In this document: positions 3,706 to 34,321 of the stretch, one piece after another | Layout of the letters: each line of letters starts with the position of its first letter | How positions within the stretch are numbered: the first letter of the stretch is position 1 | Origin: a virus | Length of the DNA: 64,000 bases | Direction: 5' to 3' (one strand) | UHGV virus genome: UHGV-0307316 | The notes under the pieces: generated by a model | What the model was told of the DNA's origin: nothing | What the model saw: only the letters and a program-made list of their open reading frames with translations | Database searches by the model: none | Made by a program: the position numbers and the translations under genes

Positions 3706-5052
3706 ATGAGTTCGAATATCTTCAGACTTGCTGATAGATTATTCAACCAACCTTTACTAGCCACTGAATCATTAGCTCACTCAGCAGCAACTTATGTGAA
3801 TAACAGATTGCTGGGTGATGTCCAAGCAGCAGTAAACTTTGATAAACCCAAAGGTGAAGCAAGAAGTCTTTTAAAAGTAAAAGATGACATTGCTATTATT
3901 CCTATTATGGGTGGTTTAACCCATCGTATGACATTCATTGATGCAATGTGTACAGGTGGATTAAGCTCTTATGAAGGTTTGCGTAGAGGCTTTGACGAAG
4001 CTTTAGCAGATGAGTCAATCAAGACTATTGTTCTGCACATCGATTCTGGTGGTGGTGAAGCTTCAGGTTGCTTTGAATTAGCACGTCACATTATGGCTTC
4101 AAGAGGCCAAAAGAAAATTATTGCTTATGTAGATGAGTTCGCTTGTTCCGCTGCATACGCTCTTGCATCTTCTGCTGAAGAAATTATTGCATCACCAGAT
4201 GCAGATGTTGGTTCTATTGGTGTAATTATGGTTCATCAGGAATTAACTAAGGCATTTGAAAAGAATGGCGTAACAATTAACGTCATCAAAGCTGGTGAGT
4301 TTAAAGGTATGGGTTCACCATTCCAAGCACTCTCAGAAGAAAGCAAAGAAAGACTTCAAAAGAGAATTAATGATACCTACGCAACCTTTACAGGTTTTGT
4401 AGCCGAATCTCGTAATCTCTCTGAAGAAGCTGTAAAGAATACTGAGGCGAATGTTTATTCTGCTCAGGAAGCTCTTGAACTTGGTTTAATTAACTCAATC
4501 ATGTCTCAAGATGATTTCTTAAATTACTTACAAGGTTCTGAAGAGGCTCCTGTAAGTTTAAACGTTAACAATTCAGGTGAAGAAATGACTGAACAAGAAA
4601 AGCAAGAACTAGAAGCTTTGCGTCTTCAGGTTGCTCAAATGAAAGCTAAAGAACAGGAAGCTGCTTTGTCAGATTTGACTAATAAGATTTCTGCTTCTGC
4701 TGAAGCTTTTGGATTTGATGCAAAAGAAGCTGCAACGACTATTTTAGGTGCTGGTCTTGACAACCCTCTGAGTGTTCTGTTTATGAATGCTATGGAAGGT
4801 GCTAACCAGAAACTTAATGAAACTATCGCGTCCCATGCTTCTGCAATGGAAGAAAAAGAATCAGAAATTACCAAGCTGAAAGAAACTGCTGGTGCTGTTC
4901 TTGAACATTCCAATGCTATGGAAGAAATGGGTAATGACGGCGAAGCTGATTTGGTTGAAGAAGAAAAAGAACCAGCTAAGAATGCTTCCGAAGACACCGC
5001 TGAACAACGCAAACTGGCTCTCCAGAATGCTCTAAAATCTCTTATTAAATAA
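3706..5052 (+). CDS. Prohead serine protease (S49/SppA-ClpP-like) with C-terminal coiled-coil scaffold-like domain
   Basis: N-terminal half has S49-like signatures (IIPIMGG, HIDSGGGEASG, SAAYALASSAEEI); C-terminal third is E/K/A/Q-rich coiled-coil; lies between portal and capsid genes. Confidence 0.7.
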   Translation: MSSNIFRLADRLFNQPLLATESLAHSAATYVNNRLLGDVQAAVNFDKPKGEARSLLKVKDDIAIIPIMGGLTHRMTFIDAMCTGGLSSYEGLRRGFDEALADESIKTIVLHIDSGGGEASGCFELARHIMASRGQKKIIAYVDEFACSAAYALASSAEEIIASPDADVGSIGVIMVHQELTKAFEKNGVTINVIKAGEFKGMGSPFQALSEESKERLQKRINDTYATFTGFVAESRNLSEEAVKNTEANVYSAQEALELGLINSIMSQDDFLNYLQGSEEAPVSLNVNNSGEEMTEQEKQELEALRLQVAQMKAKEQEAALSDLTNKISASAEAFGFDAKEAATTILGAGLDNPLSVLFMNAMEGANQKLNETIASHASAMEEKESEITKLKETAGAVLEHSNAMEEMGNDGEADLVEEEKEPAKNASEDTAEQRKLALQNALKSLIK

Positions 5053-5063
5053 GGAACACAATA

Positions 5064-5441
5064 ATGGCATATCAAGGTTTTACTAAGTTAGGTAACAGAG
5101 AACCTCTGAATGATATCATTCTTTGGGAACAGGTTACCCCAACAGGCCACTCTCGTAAAGAGTATACTCCAAAAGCTTCTACAGAATACCGTGTAGGTGA
5201 AGTTCTGAAAGCAGATGGCTCTAAAGTTGCAGCAGGAGAAGAAGCTCAGGCTGATTCTGTATGTATCGTTAACTTTTATGCAGACCTGCAACTGTCTTAC
5301 CACGGTCAGTTGAAAGTGGTTGGTATTTACCGCGACGCAGAACTGAAAGACATGCTTACTCTTGAGTCAGATGTTGATGCTGATGAAGTCAAGAAAGCAC
5401 TGGCTGCTAAAGGTATTGATTTCGTACCAACTGGCCTGTAA
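5064..5441 (+). CDS. Hypothetical head protein (possible decoration or scaffold accessory)
   Basis: 125 aa ORF between protease and major capsid gene. Confidence 0.35.
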   Translation: MAYQGFTKLGNREPLNDIILWEQVTPTGHSRKEYTPKASTEYRVGEVLKADGSKVAAGEEAQADSVCIVNFYADLQLSYHGQLKVVGIYRDAELKDMLTLESDVDADEVKKALAAKGIDFVPTGL

Positions 5442-7051: not shown

Positions 7052-7533
7052 TGGTTAAAAGGGTTATTCACCCCGCGAGAGCAAAATTAGTCGGGGCTAT
7101 GAAGAACTTGCAAACGGCTAATGCTCAAGTTGGGTATTTTCAAGAACAAGGTCAACATAGCTCTGGTTTTTCTTATCCTGCTTTAATGTATTTACAAGAA
7201 GTTATTGGGGTTCCTTCAGCTTCTGGTAAAGTATATCGTAGGTTGTTTGAAATCACTATGATGCTAAACAAACAGACCTTGTTAGAGCAGACTAAGAAGA
7301 ATCTATATAAGCAACTTAGCAGTCTCAACACAGACCCTTCAAATACCTTAGAAGCATTTGCAAAGAATACTCAAAAGGTAATTAAAAGGGGTTTTGGTAA
7401 TTCTGCTATCCTCCCTCCTAACGCACCTTCCACAGTCAAGAAAAAAGGCTTTAACGCACCTCTTGTTGAGACAGGTGACTTAAGAGATAACCTTGCTTAT
7501 AAAATTTCTACTAAGAAGGGTATTAAAAAATGA
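7051..7533 (+). CDS. Head-tail connector protein (putative)
   Basis: Position; start overlaps previous stop. Confidence 0.35.
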   Translation: MVKRVIHPARAKLVGAMKNLQTANAQVGYFQEQGQHSSGFSYPALMYLQEVIGVPSASGKVYRRLFEITMMLNKQTLLEQTKKNLYKQLSSLNTDPSNTLEAFAKNTQKVIKRGFGNSAILPPNAPSTVKKKGFNAPLVETGDLRDNLAYKISTKKGIKK

Positions 7534-7931
7534 GACTCTTAAACAGACACAGCTTTGTAGTAAAGCGTAAAGTCTCTGAAGATGGTTATTATAATGATGA
7601 TGGTGATTGGGTAGCTTCACAAGATATTGTAGAGGTTAACTGTAAAGGTAATATTCAGCCATATATCAAAGGTTCTGTAAAGAATGGTACACAGATTGCT
7701 TTACCGGAAGGTATTAGGCTTACCGATACAAGAATCCTGTATACCACATATAAGCTTAGAACTTCAGATGATGTAGAGTGGAATGAGTCTGACATTGTTA
7801 TGATTGATGGTCATGAGTATGAAGTATTTATGACTATGGATTGGTCACAGCAATTAGCCCATACATCCCATTATGAATATATCATTATTAGAAGGGATAA
7901 AATGAATGCAGTTAGAAACAGCAGAACTTGA
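7530..7931 (+). CDS. Head-tail joining protein (putative)
   Basis: Position; overlapping start/stop. Confidence 0.35.
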   Translation: MRLLNRHSFVVKRKVSEDGYYNDDGDWVASQDIVEVNCKGNIQPYIKGSVKNGTQIALPEGIRLTDTRILYTTYKLRTSDDVEWNESDIVMIDGHEYEVFMTMDWSQQLAHTSHYEYIIIRRDKMNAVRNSRT

Positions 7932-11034: not shown

Positions 11035-19143
<8,109 letters not shown>

Positions 19144-23396: not shown

Positions 23397-24295
23397 TACT
23401 TACCTACTGACAGAGGTGCTTCAATCTTCCCTGCATGTTGGTAGTTGTTAATGCCACCAATAAAATCACTTGCAGTGAGATGTTTTAGGTCACTTAAAGT
23501 GTTAAGTGGGATACCAATCTCAAAAGTTGGTGCATGGAACTCTTCATTGTTCATCAGTTCATAAACCTGCTTCATATGGTTCTGATAAATCTGAGTATCT
23601 CCAAAGACACCTATCAAATATCGTGGAGTGTATCCAGTCATCTTACAAAGGACTTCCAGAATAAAACCATAAGATGCAATGTTAAACGGAAGCCCTAAAA
23701 AGGTGTCTACAGAACGCTGATACCATTGTAAGTCAACTTCACCCTCGTTGGTGATATAAATCTGAAACAGAACATGACAAGGTGCTAAAGCCATTGAGTT
23801 TGCTGCAATATCTGCTGCATTCCAAGCGTTAACAAGCATGTAACGGTCTGTGATATCACCCTTCATCTTCGCTACTAAGGTCTCTAACTGGTCTACAACA
23901 CAACCATCATGACCCTCAAAGTTTCTCCACTGAACCCCGTAGATTCTACCACCTGCATCCTCTAACCAGTCTTGTTCAGAGGAATAATTAGAGCTTAACC
24001 AGCGTTTAAAATCATCTGACCAGATAGTCCAGCGTTCCCCATCATTTTCACCCCAAGTACGGTAACGAAGTTCACCAAGTTTATTCTCACCATTCAGGAA
24101 CCATAAAGCTTCCCCAATAACTTGCCGTGTAAACACCTGTTTAGATGTTAAGAGTGGGAAACCAGTTCGCATATCAAAACGAAACTGTGGTGGAGCAAAT
24201 GCAGAGATAACCTCTCCAGTTCGTGTAGTACGCAGTTCACCAACGGATAAAACATGGTTCAGGATATTTTTGTAACTCAAATCAGCTTGTGACAT
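23396..24295 (-). CDS. thyA: Thymidylate synthase
   Basis: N-terminal RTTRTGE motif and active-site PCH (ALAPCHVLFQ) in the translation. Confidence 0.85.
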   Translation of the reverse strand: MSQADLSYKNILNHVLSVGELRTTRTGEVISAFAPPQFRFDMRTGFPLLTSKQVFTRQVIGEALWFLNGENKLGELRYRTWGENDGERWTIWSDDFKRWLSSNYSSEQDWLEDAGGRIYGVQWRNFEGHDGCVVDQLETLVAKMKGDITDRYMLVNAWNAADIAANSMALAPCHVLFQIYITNEGEVDLQWYQRSVDTFLGLPFNIASYGFILEVLCKMTGYTPRYLIGVFGDTQIYQNHMKQVYELMNNEEFHAPTFEIGIPLNTLSDLKHLTASDFIGGINNYQHAGKIEAPLSVGK

Positions 24296-24296
24296 A

Positions 24297-24842
24297 TCAA
24301 AAGTGTCCTTTTACTTGTGGAACATAAATTTCAAAGGTTGCTTTACCATCATCCGATGGCCTTGACTGTACCTTTGCAAATACACGGCTATCATACAGCT
24401 TCTCAAAGAAGTTTTCAAAAGGTAAATGCACAGTGGCCTCTTCAGTAACTTTATGGAAGACTGTATGGAACACCACACCAGCATACGGTAAAGCATTGAC
24501 AAGGACACCTGCACCACCAATTACAAAGACATCTTCATCAATAGAGCTATCAAGATACTTCAAAAATGCTCCAAATGACTCTTTACTGGCTTTAGCATAC
24601 ATTACATCATCTTTGCCAAAGTCTATGCCTAAGTATGGTACAGAATTTGTTAAGATTAGGTTTGCACGTTCTGGTAGAGGTTTACTACCCAGAGTCTTAA
24701 AAGTCTCATTACCCATCACTACTAAGTTATTTTTAGTGAGTCTCTTAAACTCTTGCATGTCCTGTTTATGTCGAGGCCACGGCATACCAGTTGGAGTACC
24801 AAACTCACCATTTTCACCACTTGCAAAGATTAATTTAATCAT
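24297..24842 (-). CDS. Dihydrofolate reductase
   Basis: N-terminal IFA..NGEFG..MPW and VVMGNETFKTLG..PLPER motifs; adjacent to thyA. Confidence 0.8.
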   Translation of the reverse strand: MIKLIFASGENGEFGTPTGMPWPRHKQDMQEFKRLTKNNLVVMGNETFKTLGSKPLPERANLILTNSVPYLGIDFGKDDVMYAKASKESFGAFLKYLDSSIDEDVFVIGGAGVLVNALPYAGVVFHTVFHKVTEEATVHLPFENFFEKLYDSRVFAKVQSRPSDDGKATFEIYVPQVKGHF

Positions 24843-25099
24843 TTTGTAAATCCTTTCTTAATGAACCAGTTGATAACACTCTTCACAACTTTACTACGAT
24901 GGTAGATAAAATGTGGAGAGGGTTGGTATGAACCATAAGCCCAGAAAGCGATAATTTCATTACACACTGTGCATCGGGTACTTTCTTCAGCAATATGACC
25001 GTTAACTATTTCACTTACCTCACCTTGTAAGTCTGTACACCCACAATGTGGACAACGGATAGGTGTTCCATCAGACTCATAGCAGTGTTCAATTTTCAT
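24839..25099 (-). CDS. Zinc-ribbon protein (hypothetical)
   Basis: CPHCGC ... CTVCN cysteine pairs. Confidence 0.35.
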   Translation of the reverse strand: MKIEHCYESDGTPIRCPHCGCTDLQGEVSEIVNGHIAEESTRCTVCNEIIAFWAYGSYQPSPHFIYHRSKVVKSVINWFIKKGFTK

Positions 25100-25615
25100 C
25101 TATTTAACCTCAAAAACTGGTTCAAGAACCAATATAAAGTCTACACAGTCATCTTCTTCATCCAGAATACCATCAAAGTTCTTAGGTACAAAGTCGAAGA
25201 GACTCATAGAATATCGGTCAGAAGTAACCCTGATAGTGTTCCCTAGATTCTCTACAGTTAATATTGTACGGCTTTCTGTTACCTCACTTAGAAGATTACT
25301 CACAAAGTCATCTAAGAAGTGTTTCATCAGTGACTTGAAGCCTTTAGGGTAATCTGTACCAGAGTATGTTTCAATCTGAGGAACAAGCTTAACATTTATA
25401 CTAGTCTTTGTTAAGAACGTTTTAGAGAACATGCTATCAGGTAGCTTACAAACAGTCTTTCCAGTACCTTCATGTTCAATCTCAACAAAACCAGCTTCGT
25501 CGCCACATGTAACTATTTTAAAAGATGCTTCATTCTCATACTGTGAAGCCATAAACTTTTTAAGCATCTCTTTAAGGAAATCTGCATGAGCATCTTGTAA
25601 GTAGACATCAATCAT
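25100..25615 (-). CDS. Hypothetical protein
   Basis: 171 aa ORF in - strand operon. Confidence 0.35.
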   Translation of the reverse strand: MIDVYLQDAHADFLKEMLKKFMASQYENEASFKIVTCGDEAGFVEIEHEGTGKTVCKLPDSMFSKTFLTKTSINVKLVPQIETYSGTDYPKGFKSLMKHFLDDFVSNLLSEVTESRTILTVENLGNTIRVTSDRYSMSLFDFVPKNFDGILDEEDDCVDFILVLEPVFEVK

Positions 25616-25628
25616 AGTTAATCACCTA

Positions 25629-25988
25629 TTATGGGAACAGACACTTAATGTCATCGTTTTTGAAAACGAAACTTGTGTAGTTGTGACCATCAACATCCAA
25701 CCAAACAGCCTGAACATCTACACCATCAATATTCTGGTAAAGCTCTTTAATGAAGTGGTCTTTCACAAACTGACTGCTAGTGGTTTCCAGCTTGATGTTT
25801 GAGATTGCTGAACCTACAGCCATATAACCCATGACACGTTTCTTCTCAGTATGCTTAATCTTACCATCTTTGTAAGCCATAATGAGATTGGAGAGAATCT
25901 TCACACCATAATACTTTTCAAGGTGAGTAGGTACACCGTAAAAGCCTAATGCGAAGTTTTCAGAGTGGATAATGTTTTCACGTTTCAT
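25629..25988 (-). CDS. Hypothetical protein
   Basis: 119 aa ORF in - strand operon. Confidence 0.35.
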   Translation of the reverse strand: MKRENIIHSENFALGFYGVPTHLEKYYGVKILSNLIMAYKDGKIKHTEKKRVMGYMAVGSAISNIKLETTSSQFVKDHFIKELYQNIDGVDVQAVWLDVDGHNYTSFVFKNDDIKCLFP

Positions 25989-25989
25989 A

Positions 25990-26319
25990 TTAATCTGCCA
26001 ACCTTAAATTAAAATTAACACCAAATTTTTCACATACTTCCAACATATACTCAAGGGAGACATTACCAGTGAGATGAATTATGTTGGACACACGAGCCTG
26101 AGAGATACCACAAATTTTAGCAACTTGCTCTTGAGAAAGACCTCTGGATTTAATCTCTCTCTTAAAACGATGTGCAACGAAGTCTCTCATTTCGTCTACA
26201 TCCATTGGACAAATATAACTCTCCATTTCAGCCTCTCTATCAGCCTCCCAATCATCTTGTGGGGCATAAGGGTCAAAAACCTCATTCATCTTTCTTCTTC
26301 CGTTTGCGTGAAGTATCAA
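25990..26319 (-). CDS. HTH (XRE-like) DNA-binding protein
   Basis: Helix-turn-helix signature GLSQEQVAKICGISQARVSNI in C-terminal half. Confidence 0.5.
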   Translation of the reverse strand: MILHANGRRKMNEVFDPYAPQDDWEADREAEMESYICPMDVDEMRDFVAHRFKREIKSRGLSQEQVAKICGISQARVSNIIHLTGNVSLEYMLEVCEKFGVNFNLRLAD

Positions 26320-26494
26320 TTAATGAGTCTATGTTAGTAGCCCTGACCTTTTCACGTTCATCGTTAAGATAATCATCAAGAGCCTTTTCAATCTGTGAAT
26401 CATCTTGACAGATAACTGTAAAGACTGTAAAGCCGTCTGTATCGTCAATTATCTTACCATAACCGCTTCTGGGATGTAACTTTTTAAGAGCCAT
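26282..26494 (-). CDS. Hypothetical small protein
   Basis: 70 aa ORF; first gene downstream of repeat module A on - strand operon path. Confidence 0.3.
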   Translation of the reverse strand: MALKKLHPRSGYGKIIDDTDGFTVFTVICQDDSQIEKALDDYLNDEREKVRATNIDSLIDTSRKRKKKDE

Positions 26495-26495
26495 A

Positions 26496-26879
26496 TCAAA
26501 TACCTGTGCAGCTTCTGTTTTCTAAGAAATACTCAACACCATACATAGCTTTTTGCATCAAATCTTCTTTAAACTGAATACGATGATTAAGCATAGCCTG
26601 TACATCAATATCATCATGGTGCTTCTCTTTAATATTTGCAGATTGCAGGAAATACTCTGCAAGAACACGATACTGATAGTCAGTTACCTTGTCAGTCATC
26701 TCTGTTAAAGACTCTTCAGAGATTGGTTTAAGTAACTCACCATTAGCCAAAGCAACACCTTTAACAATCTGACAAGTGTCTTCTGGAACACCTGATAAGT
26801 CCACATTTGGAAGTTCTGTTGCATTGACTGGTAAATTCATTGCCATAACCATTGCAGCAGCTAATAAAATCTTTTTCAT
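26496..26879 (-). CDS. Secreted/periplasmic protein (signal peptide)
   Basis: N-terminus MKKILLAAAMVMAMNLPVNA with A-x-A cleavage-type site. Confidence 0.45.
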   Translation of the reverse strand: MKKILLAAAMVMAMNLPVNATELPNVDLSGVPEDTCQIVKGVALANGELLKPISEESLTEMTDKVTDYQYRVLAEYFLQSANIKEKHHDDIDVQAMLNHRIQFKEDLMQKAMYGVEYFLENRSCTGI

Positions 26880-26923
26880 AATGACCTCAAAGTTATATTG
26901 AATTTTGTATTACATTGAGTATA

Positions 26924-26952
26924 AAAATAAGCTATAACACCTGACTTGTCAA
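26924..26952 (-). promoter_or_regulatory. Candidate sigma70-like promoter for 26879 gene (TTGACAAG -35 type)
   Basis: On - strand: TTGACAAG, 17-nt spacer, TATTTT about 45 nt upstream of the start codon. Confidence 0.3.
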
Positions 26953-26996
26953 CAGACTTTATAGCTTATTTGGCAGATTTTTTATAAGGCTACTGC

Positions 26997-27390
26997 CATC
27001 CTTCCATACCACACCTCACCCAACCATACCATGCCTTACCAGACCGCACCTTGCCTCATTAAAAGACCCTCTTAAAAGACCTTTTAAAAAGGTAAGTCTC
27101 ATTTTAATGTAGCTGAGACTAACTACCCGCACCGAACCTCACCTGACCTGACCGCGCCATACCTAACCGCGCCTTACCACACCTCACTTAAAAACCCTAT
27201 GAGATACTCTATCGAATATAATTTAAAGACTCTTAAGTGATGTAATCGAATTTTTATGTAGCTCCGATTAACTACCCGCACTTTACCAAACCTCACCCTA
27301 CCCTACCAGACCTTACCTAACCGCGCCGTACCTCATTAAAAGACCCTCTTAAAGACCTTTTAAAAAGGAGCCTCCGAAGAGGCTACCTAG
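26997..27390. repeat. Intergenic repeat module A (two sub-copies): phased CC/ACC 5- and 10-bp repeats plus conserved hairpin cores
   Basis: Cores CATTAAAAGACCCTCTTAAAAGACCTTTTAAAAAGG and TAAGTCTCATTTTAATGTAGCTGAGACTAACTACCC; ACC every 5 bp across 27121-27185; paralogous to 28510-28790. Confidence 0.8.
27362..27386 (-). terminator. Rho-independent terminator for - strand gene 27396-27836
   Basis: On - strand: AGCCTC-TTCG-GAGGCT hairpin followed by CCTTTTT. Confidence 0.55.
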
Positions 27391-27395
27391 TCAAC

Positions 27396-27836
27396 TTAGA
27401 AAGGTTTTCTACGTTGCTTGTTAATGTTAGCTTTCATAGCAGCTAAATGGTTTTGCTGTTCAATTAGTCGTGAACGTTCTTGATGGCTAAGTACCATAGT
27501 GTTCACATTCTCAATCGCTTGAGTGGCTTGCTTTAAAGCACGACCAATCTTACCAGACATTTTACGTTTTGCAATAGTTGCTTGATGCTTAGGTTCAACC
27601 ACACGATAACCAACACCCATTGAAGCAACCAGATAAATCTTCTCTTCTTTAAGAAGCTTCTCAATAAACTTCTCAAGTCGATTTAAGCGTGTAAGTGCGT
27701 AAGCTTTCATTTCATCTTCGTACTTAACAATGTCACCTTGATAAGTTGGCTTCACAATACCTAAGAAGGTATCCATCTCAGAGTGTGATACAGTGTCACC
27801 GTAACTAAACTTTGCTGCTAATGCTTTTGTATTCAT
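27396..27836 (-). CDS. Hypothetical protein (repeat-bracketed cassette)
   Basis: 146 aa ORF; basic C-terminus; flanked by repeat modules. Confidence 0.4.
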   Translation of the reverse strand: MNTKALAAKFSYGDTVSHSEMDTFLGIVKPTYQGDIVKYEDEMKAYALTRLNRLEKFIEKLLKEEKIYLVASMGVGYRVVEPKHQATIAKRKMSGKIGRALKQATQAIENVNTMVLSHQERSRLIEQQNHLAAMKANINKQRRKPF

Positions 27837-27838
27837 AA

Positions 27839-28444
<606 letters not shown>

Positions 28445-28509
28445 TTAGTTGATTGTTAAGTTGTTTGTAAAGAACCCTCAACAGAAGACTCTTTAGAAAC
28501 TTGGTAGAT

Positions 28510-28790
28510 TTTTAACGTGGATACTACCATCCACCCATACCGTGCCACACCACACCGGACCGTACCATGCCCAACCCTACTACACCAGACCTTATTAAAA
28601 GACCCTCTCCAAAGACCTTTTAAAAAGGTAAGTCTCATTTTAATGTAGCTGAGACTAACTACCCATACATTACCGCACCATATTATACCCTACCCCACCA
28701 TACTTCACTGCACCGAGCCACGCATTACATCACTTAAAAAACCTTTTCAAAGACTCTTAAGTGATGCTGGTGAGTACCCGTTGGTTTATG
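28510..28790. repeat. Intergenic repeat module B (paralog of module A)
   Basis: Shares the core GACCTTTTAAAAAGGTAAGTCTCATTTTAATGTAGCTGAGACTAACTACCC (28614-28664, identical to 27078-27128) and ATTAAAAGACCCTCT, plus CC/ACC-phased tracts and CACTTAA...TTAAGTG hairpin. Confidence 0.8.
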
Positions 28791-28830
28791 CTGCTCAGTA
28801 TACTCACCAAATTTTCTATGTCAACAACTT

Positions 28831-29967
28831 TTATTCGTAGTCTCGAATAACGAGACCAACAGGGAACTGTAAAGAACCCTTACGAGTCATCTTCTGGAAC
28901 TGAACCGTTAAAGGTTTCCCGATAAACTCTTCAGGATGCTCAGCAAGATACTGTTTCTTCTCGTGTGTAGTTTTCCATGAAACATCTACAAAGACGTTAG
29001 GAAGAGTCTCTACAACGAACTTACCATGACCACGCTTATCAGTCTTTACACCAGTCACTTTAAACTCTTCAGTGTGCATCTTCTTGTGCTTAATCAAGAA
29101 GTATGAACGGTGACCACACTCATAGAAAGATTCTTCAGAGATTGAACGGTACATTGCACCTTCAAACTTAGCTTCAACCCACTTATCATGAGCTTCATCA
29201 AACTCTTCCCAAGAATTTACACGGATAGTCTGTACAGGAACAACTCTACAGGTATCCCCAAGCTCAACAATAGGTGAGTTATCAATAACTTCACGACGCT
29301 CAGGCCAAGATTTTGAATTGTCACAGATATCATACCAGTAGAATTTAAGAAGGTGACGGTCTGGATTGTCAGCATTCTTAATCATAGATACAATATCTTC
29401 TAAGTCCCAACCATGAGCATAAATCTCTCCGTCAAAGTCTTCAACTTGCGGATGTAATTTAAGCAACAAAAGCAAATCTGGGATTAGTTCTGTTGGAACG
29501 TTGTAAACAGTATTCTCACGAGAATAAGCTGTGAAACTGACTGAATCAGCATCTCTTGAGATTCTACAACGTACACCATCAAGTTTTGGTTGAGCATCAG
29601 CAGGGAACTTCAGATACTTTGCATGACTAACCTTTGCAGCATCATGAGCAAGCTGTACACCTACCTTCTCAGTATTCTGTGCAGACTCTTTTGTGTAAGC
29701 ATAACCTTTACGGTCAACTTGCTTTTTATACTTAGCAGCAACTTCAAAGAGAGCTTGCTGTTCAGCGTTACGCTCATTCTTTTTACCGATGTTCTTAGGC
29801 TCTGCTGTATACTCTTCAAACATCATCTTGCCATTCTCTTTACCATAGGTTGTAATAACTTTGTCACCTACAGCAACACATGACCAGACGTTGAAGGAAC
29901 CATCTTTATTTTGTTTGTACAGAATTGTCATTTTTAACCTCTGAGTGATACCAAGTATTGCAAGCAT
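28831..29967 (-). CDS. ATP-dependent DNA ligase
   Basis: Adenylation motif I KLDGVRC (KxDGxR) in the translation; size as for T7-type ligases. Confidence 0.8.
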   Translation of the reverse strand: MLAILGITQRLKMTILYKQNKDGSFNVWSCVAVGDKVITTYGKENGKMMFEEYTAEPKNIGKKNERNAEQQALFEVAAKYKKQVDRKGYAYTKESAQNTEKVGVQLAHDAAKVSHAKYLKFPADAQPKLDGVRCRISRDADSVSFTAYSRENTVYNVPTELIPDLLLLLKLHPQVEDFDGEIYAHGWDLEDIVSMIKNADNPDRHLLKFYWYDICDNSKSWPERREVIDNSPIVELGDTCRVVPVQTIRVNSWEEFDEAHDKWVEAKFEGAMYRSISEESFYECGHRSYFLIKHKKMHTEEFKVTGVKTDKRGHGKFVVETLPNVFVDVSWKTTHEKKQYLAEHPEEFIGKPLTVQFQKMTRKGSLQFPVGLVIRDYE

Positions 29968-30124
29968 TACATGCGTAAAGCTCTAAGTCATTTTTATCTG
30001 GTTTGTGGAAACAGTTTGACCCACAACGACACCGGAATAGCTTACCATCAACACGAAGAATGAATGTTTCAAGCTCACCATCTTCTGTAAGAACTGCGTT
30101 CTTAAATTTATCTTCTACAGTCAT
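29906..30124 (-). CDS. Zinc-finger small protein (hypothetical)
   Basis: CRCGSNC ... CNACN cysteine pairs. Confidence 0.35.
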   Translation of the reverse strand: MTVEDKFKNAVLTEDGELETFILRVDGKLFRCRCGSNCFHKPDKNDLELYACNACNTWYHSEVKNDNSVQTK

Positions 30125-30327
30125 TTTCTCTTACCACCAATCTCTACGTCGATAACTTGAACATCGCCAGCAACATCAAACTTATGAATGATGCTTTCCA
30201 CAGTGTAAGTCCAACCCTCAATGCGAACCAACTCACCTTCTCGTGGGACGATTGGATTACGTTGAGCTACGGTTGTAGTGGAGTGAACAACATCATAACA
30301 ATAGATGTAGTTTACTAAGACTTCCAT
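30121..30327 (-). CDS. Hypothetical protein (start trimmed to internal Met to avoid overlap with lipoprotein gene)
   Basis: ATG at 30325-30327 (- strand) preceded by GAGG; the longer listed ORF would overlap 30338-30607. Confidence 0.3.
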   Translation of the reverse strand: MEVLVNYIYCYDVVHSTTTVAQRNPIVPREGELVRIEGWTYTVESIIHKFDVAGDVQVIDVEIGGKRK

Positions 30328-30337
30328 CGTGAAAACC

Positions 30338-30607
30338 TCACTCAATAACCGTAGTGTGTGATTGACCATTTTTGCCATAGCTATAAGATGTTGTTGTTTG
30401 GGAGTTTGGACATCTGACAACAACAATATCTCTGCTTATAGCATCACCATGTAACTTGTATACTCTGCAATCTTGCATCTCTGGTGGGAGACTGTAAGAA
30501 GCATTTTTATCTTCATAAGAAGGGTTGCAGCCAGATAGAAAAACAACACCAAGCGCAATTACTGCTTTCCACATAATACTTCCCCAGAGACTGTACATTT
30601 TCTTCAT
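30338..30607 (-). CDS. Small lipoprotein (candidate superinfection-exclusion / receptor-masking protein)
   Basis: Signal peptide with lipobox (VVFLSGC); short mature domain with an additional Cys. Confidence 0.5.
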   Translation of the reverse strand: MKKMYSLWGSIMWKAVIALGVVFLSGCNPSYEDKNASYSLPPEMQDCRVYKLHGDAISRDIVVVRCPNSQTTTSYSYGKNGQSHTTVIE

Positions 30608-30837
30608 AGCAACTCCAGAATATCAATACGTTCACCTTTGAGTACTCCAGTACGGTCTTTTGCAATCTTACCGTCAACAATAAGAATGTGTGCAGACCTT
30701 AAAGTGTCGCTGTTAAAGGCTTTTACGAACTTGCTAGGCATCACTACAATACACATCTCCTGAATCAACTCTGGAGTATAGCAATTGTCGTGAAGTTGCT
30801 GAATAACGTCTGCAAGTGTCATTTTTGATGTCTCCAA
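30604..30837 (-). CDS. Hypothetical protein
   Basis: 77 aa ORF, translationally coupled. Confidence 0.3.
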   Translation of the reverse strand: METSKMTLADVIQQLHDNCYTPELIQEMCIVVMPSKFVKAFNSDTLRSAHILIVDGKIAKDRTGVLKGERIDILELL

Positions 30838-31028
30838 TATTCAATATCTACAAGTTCTTGTGCAATGCTTTTAAGGTTACTTTTGAGGAAAACTTTCTCA
30901 CCACCAGACAGGGAAGTGTTATCAATGAGTCTATTCATTCTCTCAAACAACTTCTGCTTACGGTTCTTGATAGTTTCCTTTGAAGCACCTTTCATCATCG
31001 CTGCATGGGTTCTTCCACGGTGACTCAT
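30819..31028 (-). CDS. Hypothetical small basic protein
   Basis: 69 aa ORF. Confidence 0.3.
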   Translation of the reverse strand: MSHRGRTHAAMMKGASKETIKNRKQKLFERMNRLIDNTSLSGGEKVFLKSNLKSIAQELVDIEYWRHQK

Positions 31029-31079
31029 AAGCCCTCCTATATAAGATATAGTATAAGGTACTCTTCCATGAGCACCTTG

Positions 31080-31595
31080 TCAACTTAGTTTTGCAAACTC
31101 TCCGTGGAGTTTTACAGCAGCTTCACAGTAAGCTTTATGGGCTTCTTCTTCCGTTGTGTATGTTCCTATATGTATAGTCTTACCATTATGGTTAATCTGG
31201 GCTACCCACTTACCAGACTTGCTTCTACTTGTGCCTTTTAAGTTTTTTGATGTTCTAGGTTGTCTCCTATTAGACATGTTCTGTTCTTTTGTGGCCTCTC
31301 TTAAATTGTTCCAAGCGTTATTCAAGCCATCTCCATCTTTGTGGTCAATGTGTTTATCAGGCCACTTGCCTGTCATCCAGAACCAAGCAATTCGGTGATT
31401 ACCTGTCCTGTATCCTAAAATCTGTGTGTGCATATACACACCAGACCTTGTGCGCTTAATTGCTCCGGCTTGGCTTCCAATAACCACCCTACTACTATGT
31501 GGAGGTCTACCAATCCATGTTAAGACCCCTGTTTCGGGGTCATAATCTAACCAAGACTTTAACTGTTCATGTGTGAATCCACAATCTCTCATCAA
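31080..31595 (-). CDS. HNH homing endonuclease with AP2-type DNA-binding domain
   Basis: HNH core IDHKDGDGLNNAWNNLREATKEQN; C-terminal AP2-like segment SKSGKWVAQINHNGKTIHIGTYTTEEEAHKAY; start abuts DNA polymerase stop. Confidence 0.7.
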   Translation of the reverse strand: MMRDCGFTHEQLKSWLDYDPETGVLTWIGRPPHSSRVVIGSQAGAIKRTRSGVYMHTQILGYRTGNHRIAWFWMTGKWPDKHIDHKDGDGLNNAWNNLREATKEQNMSNRRQPRTSKNLKGTSRSKSGKWVAQINHNGKTIHIGTYTTEEEAHKAYCEAAVKLHGEFAKLS

Positions 31596-34321
31596 TGTAC
31601 CTCATACCAGCTCTTACCAACCTTACCTGTGCCAGTTACAAGCGTCTCACTCTTCAAACCTAAATTCTTAGATGCCTGACCATACATCCAGTCAGTTATG
31701 GCTTTAACTTCTTGAGTCATACTTTCTGGGCATTCCCAACTGTTTTCATCGTGGTATGCCAGCAAAAGCCTAGCACCGATTGCTGGTTTTCGTCCATTTA
31801 ATTTTGTCAATCCTTCTTCACATGCTCTTCTACAAGCAAGATTAATTGCCTCATTTTGAATCTGAGCCTCTGAACCCATGAGCAAATAATTCAATAACTT
31901 ATGTGGAGATTTACACCACAACCAAGCTCCAGCAACCTTTACAAAACCACCTTTAGAGATTGCAGCAGTCTTACCAAATACCTCTTCAAGTGCCTTTTTA
32001 GTTGCTTTGTAGTCAGCTTCCAAGTCATCTAGCAGCTTTTTAATTTTAGGCAAACGAATAAAGTAAGTCTGTTTAGTCAGCGCACCTTCCTGAGTAGTTG
32101 CAGCTTTAATCGTCTTAGCAAACTTCTCATCACCTGCACCGAACAGCAGTGCATAGATACCATTCTTAGCTTTCTTACGACCCTTGCTAATCTCATGAAG
32201 AAGATTCTCATCCTGAGTAGCTCGACAAGTCAAGATGTCCTGCTCATCGTTCAAGTTAAAGTAAATACTGTTCAGTGTATGTGCATCAGTCCCTGAATAG
32301 ACAACGTACAGGTCATTCTCAGAGTCATAGCGAAGGTACTTATCAATCTCTGGGTTGAGGTACTCATCAAAGTGTTTACAGTAATAGCGTCCATCTTCTT
32401 GACGAATGAACTCAATTTCTTCTTTACCTTGCGTTACCGCTTTGGTGAAGTCTTTATCACCCATAAAGTTACAAAGAAGAACTAGCTGGGCTGAGTTCAT
32501 GTCTACAGAGACAACGTTAGTACCTTCCTCACAAATCCACACTGCCCTCATTGGTTCCCCATAGACAGCAGCACCAGACGGTACGTTTACAATACCATAC
32601 TGTGTCATACGTCCAGTTGAAGTACCAAACACCATTGCACCAGCACTAAGGCGACCATCAGGACGAATCTGGTTCAACCAACCTTTTTCATCATCCTTTG
32701 AGTTCTCAATAGTTCTGCGTCGGTGCATCAAAGTGTAGTATTTAGCAATCTTCTGTCCAAGCTCACCTTCAATCGTATCGTAAGATGATTCAGTAAGTTT
32801 TGGTGAAGTACGGATTAAGCAAGGCTCAAGCAAATCTGTGTACTTCTTCACAGACCAGTTATGCTCAATGTACTGGACGCCTTCGTGTTCAACATAACTC
32901 AAACCACACCGCTCAACCATTTCCTGCCACTTAGGATGCTTTGTAATCATCTTTTTATTGTCTTTGAAACGACAAACTTTGACAGGGCGACCATCAGAGT
33001 CTTTCTTGTAGTTCCAGTCATCTGGAATCCAACCAACTGATTTCAAGTAGTCTTTAACAACTGCTACCTGAGTCATACGAGAAACTTCAAACTCAATTGG
33101 TGTATATGGTGCATCAATCAAACCTGTGTAGCGACTTGACTCAAGTTCAAAGTGGTTAACAACGTGGCTGTTATAGTACTTCACAGTTTTGACTGTTTTT
33201 ACTGGCTTCCAGTCTTTGCATTTCTTACCAATCTTTGCGTTCAACTCATTGCAAATTGCACGAGCATCCTTCATTGCTACAAAGCCTTCCTTGTACTCTT
33301 CACCAGTTACAGAGTTGGTTGGTGTATAGCAATTCCTTTTTTCAATGTTAAAAATCTTTGTAGTTGGCTTACCAAATGGTTTGATTTCGTATGTCTGCAT
33401 CTCGCCATTACGTACCTGCTGACGATACTTTGTCTTAGGGTACTTGGTAATTCTTTTCAGTCCATCTGCATGACCAAATGTTTCAACATACTCATTCCAA
33501 GCTTTTGCAAACTCTTCTCCAGTGACTTTACCTTTGGTCTTAATAGTTGGAGGTAGATGTGGTTCAACCTCTGAAGCAAGCTCATTAGTCAACTTGTCAA
33601 GTTCCTTTACATGGAACTCCATAAGCTCTTTATCAGCTTTCCAACCATTGATAGCTTGTTGACTCATCCAGAAAGATGTTTCTTTAGCTCGCATGTAGGT
33701 TTCATAAGTGTCTATGCCACACTTCTTAAGCTTGAGATACTCATTATCAAGTGCCCGTTTAGTTTTGGCGTTAATACGGATATCTTCTACAACACGAGTG
33801 AAGATTTCTGCATTCCACACACCCCAATGTTCAATCTCTGGTTTACGAACACCAACACGAGCACCCCATGCAGCCAAGCCATGAGCACCTTTATAACCCT
33901 TTGGAGTTGGTCTATCCATCCACTGAACACGAGACTGGATAAGAGAATCCTGAAAGAAATTACTCCACGGCTTACACTTTGGATTATCAAAGTTCCATAA
34001 ATCCGGTGCAATGTGATTGAAAACCCACCAGTCATAACCTAGACCATTATGAATGCAAAGACGTTTTGCCTTTAACGCAAACTCAATACCTTCACGTAAG
34101 CCACCCTTAATGTACTTGGTATACTTGTGACCGAGGATAGGCTCATCTGTAAAGACCCATACAGGTGGCTCTTCATCGTCAGATTTATAGTCTGCGAAAG
34201 CCATTACGTGCACTTTAGTGAACTCAAGGAGTAAACCATCAGTTTCTGTATCACCAACTAAATGTAAGTTTTTAAAATCTACGTTTTCCATTTTTACTCC
34301 CTCTAAAATCATTAACCTCAT
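31592..34321 (-). CDS. DNA polymerase, family A (T7 gp5-like) with 3'-5' exonuclease domain
   Basis: Exo I VGDTETDGL; Pol motif A VSVDMNSAQLVLL; motif B KKAKNGIYALLFGAG; motif C AYHDE. Confidence 0.9.
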   Translation of the reverse strand: MRLMILEGVKMENVDFKNLHLVGDTETDGLLLEFTKVHVMAFADYKSDDEEPPVWVFTDEPILGHKYTKYIKGGLREGIEFALKAKRLCIHNGLGYDWWVFNHIAPDLWNFDNPKCKPWSNFFQDSLIQSRVQWMDRPTPKGYKGAHGLAAWGARVGVRKPEIEHWGVWNAEIFTRVVEDIRINAKTKRALDNEYLKLKKCGIDTYETYMRAKETSFWMSQQAINGWKADKELMEFHVKELDKLTNELASEVEPHLPPTIKTKGKVTGEEFAKAWNEYVETFGHADGLKRITKYPKTKYRQQVRNGEMQTYEIKPFGKPTTKIFNIEKRNCYTPTNSVTGEEYKEGFVAMKDARAICNELNAKIGKKCKDWKPVKTVKTVKYYNSHVVNHFELESSRYTGLIDAPYTPIEFEVSRMTQVAVVKDYLKSVGWIPDDWNYKKDSDGRPVKVCRFKDNKKMITKHPKWQEMVERCGLSYVEHEGVQYIEHNWSVKKYTDLLEPCLIRTSPKLTESSYDTIEGELGQKIAKYYTLMHRRRTIENSKDDEKGWLNQIRPDGRLSAGAMVFGTSTGRMTQYGIVNVPSGAAVYGEPMRAVWICEEGTNVVSVDMNSAQLVLLCNFMGDKDFTKAVTQGKEEIEFIRQEDGRYYCKHFDEYLNPEIDKYLRYDSENDLYVVYSGTDAHTLNSIYFNLNDEQDILTCRATQDENLLHEISKGRKKAKNGIYALLFGAGDEKFAKTIKAATTQEGALTKQTYFIRLPKIKKLLDDLEADYKATKKALEEVFGKTAAISKGGFVKVAGAWLWCKSPHKLLNYLLMGSEAQIQNEAINLACRRACEEGLTKLNGRKPAIGARLLLAYHDENSWECPESMTQEVKAITDWMYGQASKNLGLKSETLVTGTGKVGKSWYEVH

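Follow-up and report, generated by a model that had tools for sequence, protein, structure and literature searches.

A predicted type II VIPR cassette of the SUSP1 clade within a conserved block of genes in a Felix O1-like phage

The window analysed here (the whole stretch of 64,000 nucleotides) is assigned by its sequence to Felixounavirus, i.e. to a Felix O1-like myovirus. The block at 24839–31028 is matched by 260 phage records at 80–99% identity, mostly from Felixounavirus, and synteny at this locus extends to SUSP1, dune, tootiki and wV8. It contains 14 minus-strand ORFs, comprising 13 small ORFs and a 378-aa ATP-dependent DNA ligase, and the GC skew is negative over 23–34 kb, in agreement with leftward transcription. 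An earlier note on this DNA described about 14 small ORFs of unknown function, with the ligase as a boundary of the block. The count of 14 holds, but the ligase is neither small nor unknown and is located mid-interval, inside the block. The features are as follows.

24839–25099, minus: 86-aa CxxC...CxxC zinc-ribbon protein (phrog_2993), homologue of Bas63 g32
25100–25615, minus: 171-aa protein (phrog_4422), homologue of Bas63 g33
25629–25988, minus: 119-aa protein (phrog_4116), homologue of Bas63 g34
25990–26289, minus: 99-aa Cro/C1-type HTH regulator (HTH_3, E = 6.1e-10; phrog_1373), homologue of Bas63 g35
26282–26494, minus: 70-aa protein (phrog_4473), homologue of Bas63 g36
26496–26879, minus: 127-aa protein (phrog_4332) with an N-terminal signal peptide by inspection, homologue of Bas63 g37
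26924–26952, minus: sigma-70-like promoter of the 127-aa gene, TTGACA-17-TATTTT, 10 of 12 matches
26972–27055, minus: guide RNA (vrRNA) D3, 10 GGYNN units and a 'GGAAG' pseudoknot tail
27095–27188, minus: vrRNA D2, 11–12 GGYNN units and a 'GGGTA' pseudoknot tail
27244–27332, minus: vrRNA D1, 11 GGYNN units and a pseudoknot tail
27369–27384, minus: terminator-like hairpin and T-run, immediately after vap1
27396–27836, minus: vap1, 146-aa VIPR accessory protein (phrog_5926)
27839–28426, minus: vipr, 195-aa RAMP protein (phrog_4652)
28503–28591, minus: vrRNA U2, 11 GGYNN units and a 'GGGTG' pseudoknot tail
28631–28734, minus: vrRNA U1, 11–14 units and a 'GGGTA' pseudoknot tail
28797–28824, minus: near-consensus sigma-70 promoter before U1-U2-vipr-vap1, TTGACA-16-TATACT, 11 of 12 matches
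28831–29967, minus: ATP-dependent DNA ligase, 378 aa (PF01068, E = 3e-9; PF14743; phrog_114, E = 5e-98)
29906–30124, minus: 72-aa Cys-rich protein (phrog_5768), homologue of Bas63 g40
30121–30327, minus: 68-aa protein (phrog_4427), homologue of Bas63 g41
30338–30607, minus: lipoprotein-like protein of at most 89 aa (phrog_902), homologue of Bas63 g42
30604–30822, minus: 72-aa protein (phrog_4230), homologue of Bas63 g44
30819–31028, minus: 69-aa protein (phrog_5180), homologue of Bas63 g45

The protein types that had been named in the earlier note are all present. Two zinc-ribbon-like CxxC...CxxC proteins (24839–25099 and 29906–30124, the latter gene overlapping the ligase start by 62 nt) were read off the sequence, and there is one HTH_3 protein by Pfam, the ORF of which as listed runs to 26319. 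Two exported proteins were recognized by inspection only: the 127-aa protein, with the signal-peptide segment MKKILLAAAMVMAMNLPVNA, and the lipoprotein-like protein, with the lipobox LSGC (...FLSGC). The cassette is indeed bracketed by repeats, at 27004–27356 and 28509–28743. The near-consensus sigma-70 promoters suggest that the block is expressed early. We read the interval as a leftward replication and nucleotide-metabolism operon region with more than one functional unit, in which a complete SUSP1-clade type II VIPR system would accompany the phage DNA ligase and eleven small genes conserved across the genus.

The small genes outside the cassette are not the hotspot of gene turnover that had been proposed, because they are syntenic and 76–100% identical at the amino-acid level in five Felixounavirus relatives (dune, tootiki, wV8, FO1a and Bas63). 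The 119-aa protein shows 97–98% identity in relatives and the HTH regulator 98–100%; the 171-aa protein shows 92–93% in Felixounavirus relatives versus 37% in SUSP1, and the 127-aa protein 97–100% versus 32%. The lipoprotein-like gene is missing from SUSP1, and the gene at 30819–31028 from both wV8 and SUSP1. The variable part of the block is the cassette (26972–28734). Vipr at 90% identity or more occurs in 118 phage records, compared with the 260 that match the block, and vipr is present in about 45% of related phages. Many relatives survive without vipr and vap1, and orphan vrRNAs are kept in all seven of the Vipr-less relatives sampled. Both the number and the sequence of the guide RNAs vary between phages.

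By homology, the repeat-bracketed cassette, flanked by the 127-aa gene and the ligase gene, is identified as a type II VIPR (Viral Interference Programmable Repeat) system of the SUSP1 clade. VIPR, which silences DNA under RNA guidance, was first reported in two preprints of 2026 (10.64898/2026.04.26.720920; 10.64898/2026.04.26.720927). The Vipr family profile matches PDB entry 36pp_D, 'SUSP1 Vipr protein', with E = 5.7e-81. Vipr, whose ORF as listed begins at a GTG at 28441, differs from SUSP1 Vipr at five of 195 residues, and no difference falls on a contact residue that was checked; His17, Glu71, Met72, Arg138, Cys173, Asp177, Trp178 and Arg179, reported as RNA contacts (10.64898/2026.04.26.720927), are all kept. 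The AF2 model of Vipr has a pLDDT of 94.4, and its best Foldseek matches in the PDB are Csm3/Cas7 and Cas6. The adjoining Vap1 differs from SUSP1 Vap1 at two of 146 residues, and 5.8 billion proteins contain just three near-identical clusters (at 90% identity). Codon differences from SUSP1 are predominantly synonymous (21 synonymous versus five non-synonymous for vipr, 23 versus two for vap1), which points to strong purifying selection on both proteins. The promoter at 28797–28824 also precedes the orphan vrRNAs of FO1a and Bas63, and the terminator-like hairpin after vap1 (AGCCTCTTCGGAGGCT, followed by the T-run) separates this gene from the three downstream guides.

Five vrRNAs flank the cassette genes, two upstream (U1 and U2) and three downstream (D1–D3), each with 10–14 GGYNN pentamers and then a tail with a covarying pseudoknot. 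The 64 kb contain five in-phase GGNNN arrays, which are confined to the minus strand and to the two intergenic regions that adjoin the cassette. They have 7–11 GG-starting units per 11-unit window versus a maximum of five in 20 mononucleotide shuffles of the window, and the repeats are thus far from chance. Among phages the NN codes vary whereas the GGY positions and tails are kept. In the tail pseudoknot 97% of the cells are paired, compared with 30–43% in slid-partner controls, and compensatory changes are seen at eight of nine pairs; the D1 tail has such changes in stem 2. The NN code of D3 reads AA GC CT AA AT AT TG GA GT AT, that of D1 is the same as in one vrRNA of phage dune and that of U2 as in one of phage wV8, while several units of U1 are degenerate (xGT).

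Comparison with SUSP1 indicates the same position of the system, with the 127-aa gene and the ligase gene on its two sides, the same vrRNA design of GGYNN pentamers with a pseudoknot tail, and the same targeted satellite family and 1-nt-skip rule. The two phages nevertheless belong to different genera (SUSP1 is a Suspvirus), and their neighbouring genes are only 32–77% identical. SUSP1 has four guides, one upstream and three downstream, where the window has five. The NN codes of the window are unlike the SUSP1 ones; two are those found in wV8 and dune.

Targets were sought with the published 1-nt-skip rule, scores being the number of NN bases matched. A satellite was found via its baseplate gene, carried by 474 of 5426 complete Escherichia coli genomes (about 9%), and 11 of the 474 satellite copies were scanned for guide matches. 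SCU-387 and O157:H7 Rafaela_II are among the strains bearing the satellite. One copy (L008) encodes WP_096972664 and WP_096972663, the proteins named for the VIPR-targeted satellite (10.64898/2026.04.26.720920). The satellite baseplate protein is 81% identical overall to that of the window phage, and near-identical over the first 185 residues, versus the 72% reported in the preprint for SUSP1; this shared gene suggests that the satellite exploits the phage. Three guides match the satellite at 82–95% of NN positions, none of them perfectly, with sites in the late-operon leader and the tape-measure gene. D1 matches 21 of 22 bases in L008, L009 and L025, a score reached by none of 300 shuffled codes; the site, ACAGCCTACGAACTTAGAAGAGACTTAAAAGC, is about 50 nt upstream of a 711-nt gene, with a consensus promoter on one side and the start codon on the other. 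D3 matches 18 of 20 bases upstream of the 711-nt gene in L005 and L011 (one of 300 shuffled codes reached this score), and U1 matches 19 of 22 (23 of 28 when extended) in the tape-measure gene of L005, L009, L010 and L023 (none of 300). In L005, L009 and L010 the base skipped by U1 is codon position 3. The best satellite match of U2, 17 of 22 with the first 14 of 14 bases paired, is not above the null in the 11 satellites, and D2 has no target at 80% or more in these satellites or in IMG/VR or GTDB genomes. Exact-pattern scans gave no hit for U2, D1 and D2 in IMG/VR or for D2 in the GTDB genomes. With a skip of 0, 2 or 3 bases, or with the window as its own target, at most 17 of 22 bases matched.

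The mechanism that we propose is that of the published SUSP1 work, carried over to the window cassette by near-identity. The host-type consensus promoter (28824–28797) would give a transcript of the two upstream guides followed by vipr and vap1, with three more guides downstream. The minimal RAMP protein Vipr, a relative of Cas7/Csm3, would polymerize on the vrRNA with one protomer per pentamer, sequestering every GGY and presenting every NN dinucleotide for pairing with double-stranded DNA, in which every third target base is skipped. The bound complex is predicted to block transcription, and Vap1, which increased VIPR protection (10.64898/2026.04.26.720920), would strengthen the silencing. 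D1 and D3 would target the leader upstream of the satellite 711-nt, tape-measure and baseplate genes, and U1 the tape-measure gene in codon phase. Given the complementarity of three of the five guides to the integrated satellite, the cassette would most likely serve to silence this satellite, which might otherwise parasitize the infection. For the window cassette itself, the analysis shows the homology, the anatomy of the RNAs, their covariation and the matches to targets; expression, ribonucleoprotein assembly and repression in this phage are inferred from SUSP1. We would put the reading as a whole, a Felix O1-like block whose cassette is a VIPR system silencing a parasitic satellite, at a probability of roughly 85%. 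The observation in the earlier note is thus real and its interpretation partly right, the core element being already known. Of the suggested host-takeover or anti-defence role, what stands is a weapon, one acting between mobile elements; its apparent target is another mobile element and not host defence or takeover.

The proposed assembly shares with Class 1 CRISPR-Cas (Cas7/Csm3 filaments on crRNA) the RAMP fold, with Csm3 and type VII Cas7 as the top Foldseek matches, as well as the use of one protomer per fixed RNA step and a variable guide segment capped by a conserved structured handle. It differs in having no CRISPR array, adaptation genes or nuclease, in a discontinuous guide of which two nucleotides are read per five of RNA and per three of DNA, and in being encoded by a phage and aimed at another mobile element.

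It is possible, though we think it rather doubtful, that the small proteins of the block and not the cassette are the main story, acting as early host-takeover and anti-defence factors. This is compatible with the preferred reading of the cassette. The consensus sigma-70 promoters in the block and the lack of a known family for most ORFs are in keeping with it, as are published data on Bas63 (JohannRWettstein). Genes g32–g45 of that phage have the same order as in the window, and the ligase and all small ORFs not belonging to the cassette are 83–100% identical in amino acids, so that the knockout results for Bas63 can be carried over by close homology; the gene mapping was checked in this analysis. 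Bas63 lacks vipr and vap1 and has two orphan vrRNAs and a 147-nt ORF (g38) instead. The PhageMaP preprint (10.1101/2024.10.10.617714) describes g32 as 'Lar-like' and as needed conditionally, on strains that have restriction systems, reports that g40 triggers the hhe defence, and finds fitness costs for several small genes. The window proteins are 83% identical to g32 and 97% to g40. However, the g32 homologue scores 17.2 bits against the NCBIfam Lar model TIGR03655, far below the cut-off of 39.6, and a defence trigger is not a counter-defence. Several small genes score like essential genes on host S17 even without an added defence system: knockout fitness is about −1.05 for g34, −1.2 for g35 and −2.4 for g40, compared with about −1.3 for the DNA polymerase. 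The cost for g40 is possibly a polar effect on the ligase (g39, about −1.6). The fitness of g33 is about 0, and g45, at +0.73, is dispensable. The conservation of these genes across the genus also argues against a cluster in turnover.

We consider it improbable that the VIPR cassette has another purpose, against rival phages or prophages and not the satellite, or that it is decaying and partly defunct. In favour, neither U2 nor D2 matches the satellite significantly, U1 contains degenerate GGY units, the two genes are lost from many surviving relatives, and other VIPR clades are reported to target prophage regulators (10.64898/2026.04.26.720920). Against it stand the strong purifying selection on Vipr and Vap1, the three guides that match the satellite well above the null, and only under the 1-nt skip, and the guides of dune, tootiki, wV8 and SUSP1, which match the same satellites at 81–95%.

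Very little credence is left for the GGU arrays as cis-regulatory leaders, in which a ring-shaped RNA-binding protein would occupy about 11 GGU triplets in the manner of a TRAP/trp-leader attenuator. The likeness to the Bacillus trp leader (11 (G/U)AG triplets, 11-mer ring) lies in some 11 purine-rich triplets with 2-nt spacers, each array having 11–12 triplets spaced exactly 5 nt apart, with hairpins and T-runs after them, and two arrays are in the 5' leader of the cassette. This model is already disfavoured: a TRAP-like protein is absent, the adjacent RAMP protein differs at only five residues from one solved with such RNA, three arrays are downstream of genes, and the two 'alternative' hairpins form a nested, covarying pseudoknot instead of an antiterminator/terminator pair. 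The hypervariable spacers have matches in foreign DNA. VIPR differs from TRAP in its protein fold, in forming a filament and not a ring, in holding its information in the spacers and not the triplets, and in targeting DNA in place of attenuation.

Least probable of all is that the repeats are inert, as recombination scars or promoter-terminator modules around an ordinary moron; the patchy presence of the cassette among relatives, with repeats at the deletion junction, and the absence of an Rfam match would fit, but sRNA sequencing and pull-down have been published for the near-identical SUSP1 locus (10.64898/2026.04.26.720920), and the strict 5-nt GGY phasing with free NN kept across phages and the compensatory base changes in the tails refute it as far as sequence analysis allows.

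The cluster of small genes of no known function that the earlier note placed on the minus strand at 24839–31028 is real but heterogeneous. Fourteen ORFs were counted in this interval, and the features ascribed to them were for the most part seen as well: two proteins with CxxC...CxxC patterns could be read in the sequence as zinc ribbons, a single HTH_3 domain accounts for the HTH regulator, inspection gave one signal-peptide protein and one lipobox protein as the exported products, and repeats are found on both flanks of the cassette (26972–28734). The ligase had been taken as a boundary of the block, but the gene for the ATP-dependent DNA ligase (28831–29967; PF01068, 37.2 bits with a cut-off of 26.2; phrog_114, E = 4.6e-98) sits within the interval, and the block is therefore not bounded by it. 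The OB domain of this ligase (PF14743) fell short of its cut-off, with 23.1 bits of the 28 required. The further suggestion that these are accessory conflict genes subject to turnover holds for the cassette, which encodes VIPR, an RNA-guided DNA-binding system and proposed ancestor of CRISPR effectors; for the other small genes it is unproven. The generic flag of small unknown early genes had concealed this specific system.

The block as a whole is matched by 260 deposited phage genomes with 80–99% identity, nearly all of them Felixounavirus or close Ounavirinae, and their hosts are Escherichia, Salmonella, Shigella and Citrobacter. A common leftward gene order is seen in the annotated relatives dune, tootiki, wV8, FO1a and Bas63 (Felixounavirus) and SUSP1 (Suspvirus), running from DNA polymerase through a homing endonuclease and five small genes to the ligase and then, past the position of the cassette, through six small genes and DHFR to thymidylate synthase. 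The GC skew is negative over 23–34 kb of the window, which fits minus-strand transcription, and a bidirectional terminator-like hairpin follows thyA at the operon end.

VIPR has been described in two 2026 preprints (10.64898/2026.04.26.720920 and 10.64898/2026.04.26.720927). As described there, a vrRNA consists of 9–16 YNNGG repeats with a conserved tail that in the SUSP1 clade folds into a pseudoknot. Each repeat is bound by one protomer of polymerising Vipr, which hides the GGY triplets and presents the NN dinucleotides, and the latter pair with double-stranded DNA with one target base in three skipped. The bound complex represses transcription, and protection is enhanced by Vap1. Of the 20 guides to which a target could be assigned in the SUSP1 clade, 18 are aimed at a satellite in E. 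coli genomes. In these preprints, vrRNA expression, Vipr binding and target repression are shown only for SUSP1 and P. fulva; from its near-identity to SUSP1 we infer that all three would also occur in the window phage.

No Pfam domain was found in the 195-residue protein of the cassette, which belongs to a large family (519 clusters at E ≤ 0.001). With a profile of 35 family members, the sole strong match in the PDB was 36pp_D, the `SUSP1 Vipr protein' (E = 5.7e-81). The two proteins are identical at 190 of 195 residues, and the SUSP1 clade is delimited in the preprint by a Vipr that is a minimal RAMP with a single RRM and is over 90% identical to that of SUSP1; the window protein falls within this clade. 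Its AlphaFold (AF2) model has a pLDDT of 94.4, and the closest structures are the Csm3/Cas7 and Cas6 RAMPs. One of the preprints (10.64898/2026.04.26.720927) lists His17, Glu71, Met72, Arg138, Cys173, Asp177, Trp178 and Arg179 as the residues that hold the GGY motif in SUSP1 Vipr, and the window protein has each of the eight at its corresponding position. We do note that the `T175' of the preprint is a valine in both SUSP1 Vipr and the window Vipr. The adjacent vap1 gene occupies the same position beside vipr as its SUSP1 counterpart, and the two products are identical at 144 of 146 residues. A search for Vap1 homologues gave three clusters only, all near-identical. Vap1 is predicted to have a DNA-binding fold, and a single-sequence AlphaFold model of it was poor (pLDDT 68).

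Viewed on the coding strand, both intergenic regions beside the cassette are runs of GGY-initial pentamers. A phase-aware scan of the whole 64 kb found five arrays, all on the minus strand and all at 27001–27337 or 28537–28724. Each array has 7–11 GG-starting units per 11-unit window, compared with at most five in shuffled sequence. These arrays correspond to five vrRNAs, two upstream of vipr (U1 and U2) and three downstream of vap1 (D1, D2 and D3).

vrRNAs of the cassette
28734–28631, minus strand, vrRNA U1, GGYNN array
28591–28503, minus strand, vrRNA U2, GGYNN array
27332–27244, minus strand, vrRNA D1, GGYNN array
27188–27095, minus strand, vrRNA D2, GGYNN array
27055–26972, minus strand, vrRNA D3, GGYNN array

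With 10–14 tandem units each, in intergenic sequence beside vipr and on the coding strand, the five arrays agree with the published description of vrRNAs. The last unit of each is conserved (GGGTA, GGGTG or GGAAG), and about 35 nt follow it. When compared with dune, tootiki, wV8 and SUSP1, the GGY triplets and the tails are conserved and the NN codes differ, which is the hypervariability expected of guides; two codes are shared outright, that of U2 with wV8 and that of D1 with dune. The tails form a pseudoknot of the type II VIPR kind. Among 12 distinct tails, one of which is from a satellite, 97% of the cells are paired and two-sided changes occur in eight of the nine pairs. Both the pairing and the covariation score exceeded those of all 500 shuffles, and sliding the 3' partners reduced the pairing to 30–43%. 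An Rfam scan of 24000–32000 with E values of up to 1 gave one weak, irrelevant match only; Rfam 15 is without a vrRNA family. The GGU arrays had at first been read as a TRAP-like attenuator with two alternative hairpins, and this reading was dropped once the adjoining protein proved to be Vipr.

To locate satellites, we used the Dit-like baseplate gene of the phage (window 13355–14152, plus strand). A copy of this gene is found in 474 of 5426 complete E. coli genomes, with about 91–94% nucleotide identity over the first ~560 nt. The copy in one E. coli satellite locus (L005, 14986–15756) shares 81% protein identity with that of the phage overall and is near-identical over the first 185 residues. 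In all 11 loci examined the baseplate copy lies within an element of ~11 kb, which is found at several different chromosomal sites and carries serine recombinases, a tape-measure gene and small genes without known function. The element in SCU-387 encodes WP_096972664 and WP_096972663, which the VIPR preprint names as proteins of the targeted satellite.

The 11 satellite copies were scanned with the 1-nt-skip pattern, and three of the five guides matched the satellite at 82–95% of their NN bases, above a threshold of 80%. Guide D1 matches at 21 of 22 NN bases in three copies, at a site that follows a consensus promoter and precedes a conserved 711-nt gene by ~50 nt. Guide D3 matches at 18 of 20 in two other copies, also upstream of the 711-nt gene. 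The U1 match (19 of 22, or 23 of 28 when extended) is within the satellite tape-measure gene in four copies, and the skipped base is codon position 3 in each of the three that were phase-checked (L005, L009 and L010). The observed scores were reached by none of 300 shuffled NN orders for D1, one of 300 for D3 and none of 300 for U1. Skips of 0, 2 or 3 bases gave at most 17 of 22, and the best match in the window itself was 16 of 22, which indicates the absence of self-targeting. No target above the null was found for U2 and D2 in the 11 satellite copies, and perfect-match 1-nt-skip scans of IMG/VR (U2, D1 and D2) and of GTDB genomes (D2) found nothing. The guides of dune, tootiki, wV8 and SUSP1 match the same satellites at 81–95%, which validates the scanning method.

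We also note a motif beginning CACTTAAGAGTCTT (coding strand) that recurs just upstream of several vrRNAs (window 28746–28766, 27222–27242 and 26704–26724). It resembles TTTTAAGTCTCTTCTAAG, which is found at the D1 target site in the leader of the SCU-387 satellite (L008, 7255–7290). Judged from sequence, the motif may be a common regulatory signal that the satellite has copied.

Guides of this type also persist in phages without the proteins. The seven Felixounaviruses without vipr and vap1 that were examined (the Felix O1-type FO1a, Bas63 and five more, L018–L022) all retain one or more orphan vrRNAs in the stretch from the ligase to the 127-aa gene.

Orphan vrRNA regions
L013 (FO1a) 4795–5090, orphan vrRNA region
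L017 (Bas63) 7205–7815, orphan vrRNA region

Every orphan consists of a GGYNN array with an intact pseudoknot tail, and in FO1a and Bas63, for which the full intergenic sequence was read, a consensus promoter like that of the window precedes them. The NN codes differ in all seven phages, and the GG content ranges from 5 of 10 to 15 of 17 units. The first Bas63 orphan equals one of the guides in tootiki, which is Vipr-positive, and matches a satellite at 21 of 24 bases. The available text of the VIPR preprint makes no use of the word `orphan'. In our view these vrRNAs are unlikely to be anything other than debris; if they are, they might be loaded in trans by the Vipr of a co-infecting phage or might act as decoys that soak up the Vipr of a rival. 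The SCU-387 satellite carries a vrRNA-like array of its own (L008, 3002–2920, minus strand) with a pseudoknot tail, stem 2 of which is compensated (GTCG/CGAC). A tblastn search found no Vipr or Vap1 homologue in eight satellites, so any satellite guides would, like the orphans, depend on the protein of a helper phage.

Vipr with at least 90% identity is found in 118 phage records, compared with the 260 that contain the block; it is carried by 77 of 120 Escherichia phages and by a smaller share of those from Salmonella (17 of 77). Comparison of the window with SUSP1 indicates high amino-acid identity from vap1 to the ligase (27396–29967; 97–99% for Vipr and Vap1 and 96% for the ligase), whereas the flanking genes have diverged (DHFR, 60%; 171-aa gene, 37%; 127-aa gene, 32%). 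Synonymous changes make up most of the codon differences (21 against 5 non-synonymous for vipr and 23 against 2 for vap1). The mosaic boundary between conserved and diverged genes indicates that the cassette has moved between genera recently, by exchange between Felixounavirus and Suspvirus. Phage typing and therapy make wide use of Felix O1-like phages, a group in which VIPR is common. Given its presence in only part of this group, relatives with and without VIPR may perform differently on satellite-bearing E. coli, the baseplate gene being present in ~9% of complete genomes. Little discovery value is left in the cassette itself: the preprints already describe the system together with its code and the satellite it targets, and a protein five residues from the published Vipr, with clade-level identity, offers low novelty. 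New results are limited to which guides the window phage carries, the closer relation of the satellite to Felixounavirus and the orphan vrRNAs of relatives that lack Vipr.

The eleven small ORFs outside the cassette belong to PHROG families without known function. The only curated domain among them is that of the Cro/C1-type HTH regulator (25990–26289; PF01381, HTH_3, 39.4 bits with a cut-off of 23); for the others, no Pfam or NCBIfam model scored above its cut-off. For ORF 24839–25099 the Lar family (TIGR03655) was considered and rejected: the model scored 17.2 bits where 39.6 is the cut-off (E = 0.005), and Pfam gave no match. The earlier note had expected a hotspot of gene turnover here, but the eleven ORFs are syntenic in dune, tootiki, wV8, FO1a and Bas63 with 76–100% amino-acid identity. 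Only the 69-aa ORF departs from this synteny, having no counterpart in wV8 or SUSP1.

Gene-by-gene knockouts of Bas63 (MZ501086) in host S17 are available from PhageMaP (10.1101/2024.10.10.617714), and the mapping of its genes to the window was confirmed. On the PhageMaP scale, clearly dispensable genes score about +1.

Knockout fitness of Bas63 genes in host S17
g32, 86-aa zinc-ribbon protein, -0.77
g33, 171-aa protein, ~0
g34, 119-aa protein, -1.05
g35, HTH regulator, -1.2
g37, 127-aa exported protein, ~-0.1
g39, DNA ligase, -1.6
g40, 72-aa Cys-rich protein, -2.4
g44, 72-aa protein (window 30604–30822), +0.2
g45, 69-aa protein, +0.73
g47, DNA polymerase (for comparison), -1.3

The same study terms g32 Lar-like, a label that comes from BLASTp annotation, and conditionally required; it also shows that g40 triggers the hhe defence (10.1101/2024.10.10.617714). 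Gene g40 has the lowest score in the block. Its homologue in the window overlaps the start region of the ligase by 62 nt (29906–29967) and is labelled `DNA ligase' in some records. Owing to this overlap the low score may be a polar effect, and either translational coupling or polarity on the ligase could explain it. The small genes outside the cassette behave as conserved genus genes, some of which are costly to fitness when knocked out.

A real turnover spot is found not among these ORFs but at the site of an HNH-AP2 homing endonuclease (window 31080–31595, minus strand), which lies just outside the interval, where it separates the DNA polymerase gene from the last of the small ORFs. This endonuclease has just 39–48% identity to those at the same site in relatives, wV8 is without one, and in tootiki an endonuclease of this type is flanked by separately annotated pieces of the polymerase gene. 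Elsewhere in the window, the gene for the 773-aa tape-measure protein contains, at 12646–12837 (plus strand), a perfect 93-nt tandem duplication (2.1 copies) followed by GCA-rich triplet repeats.
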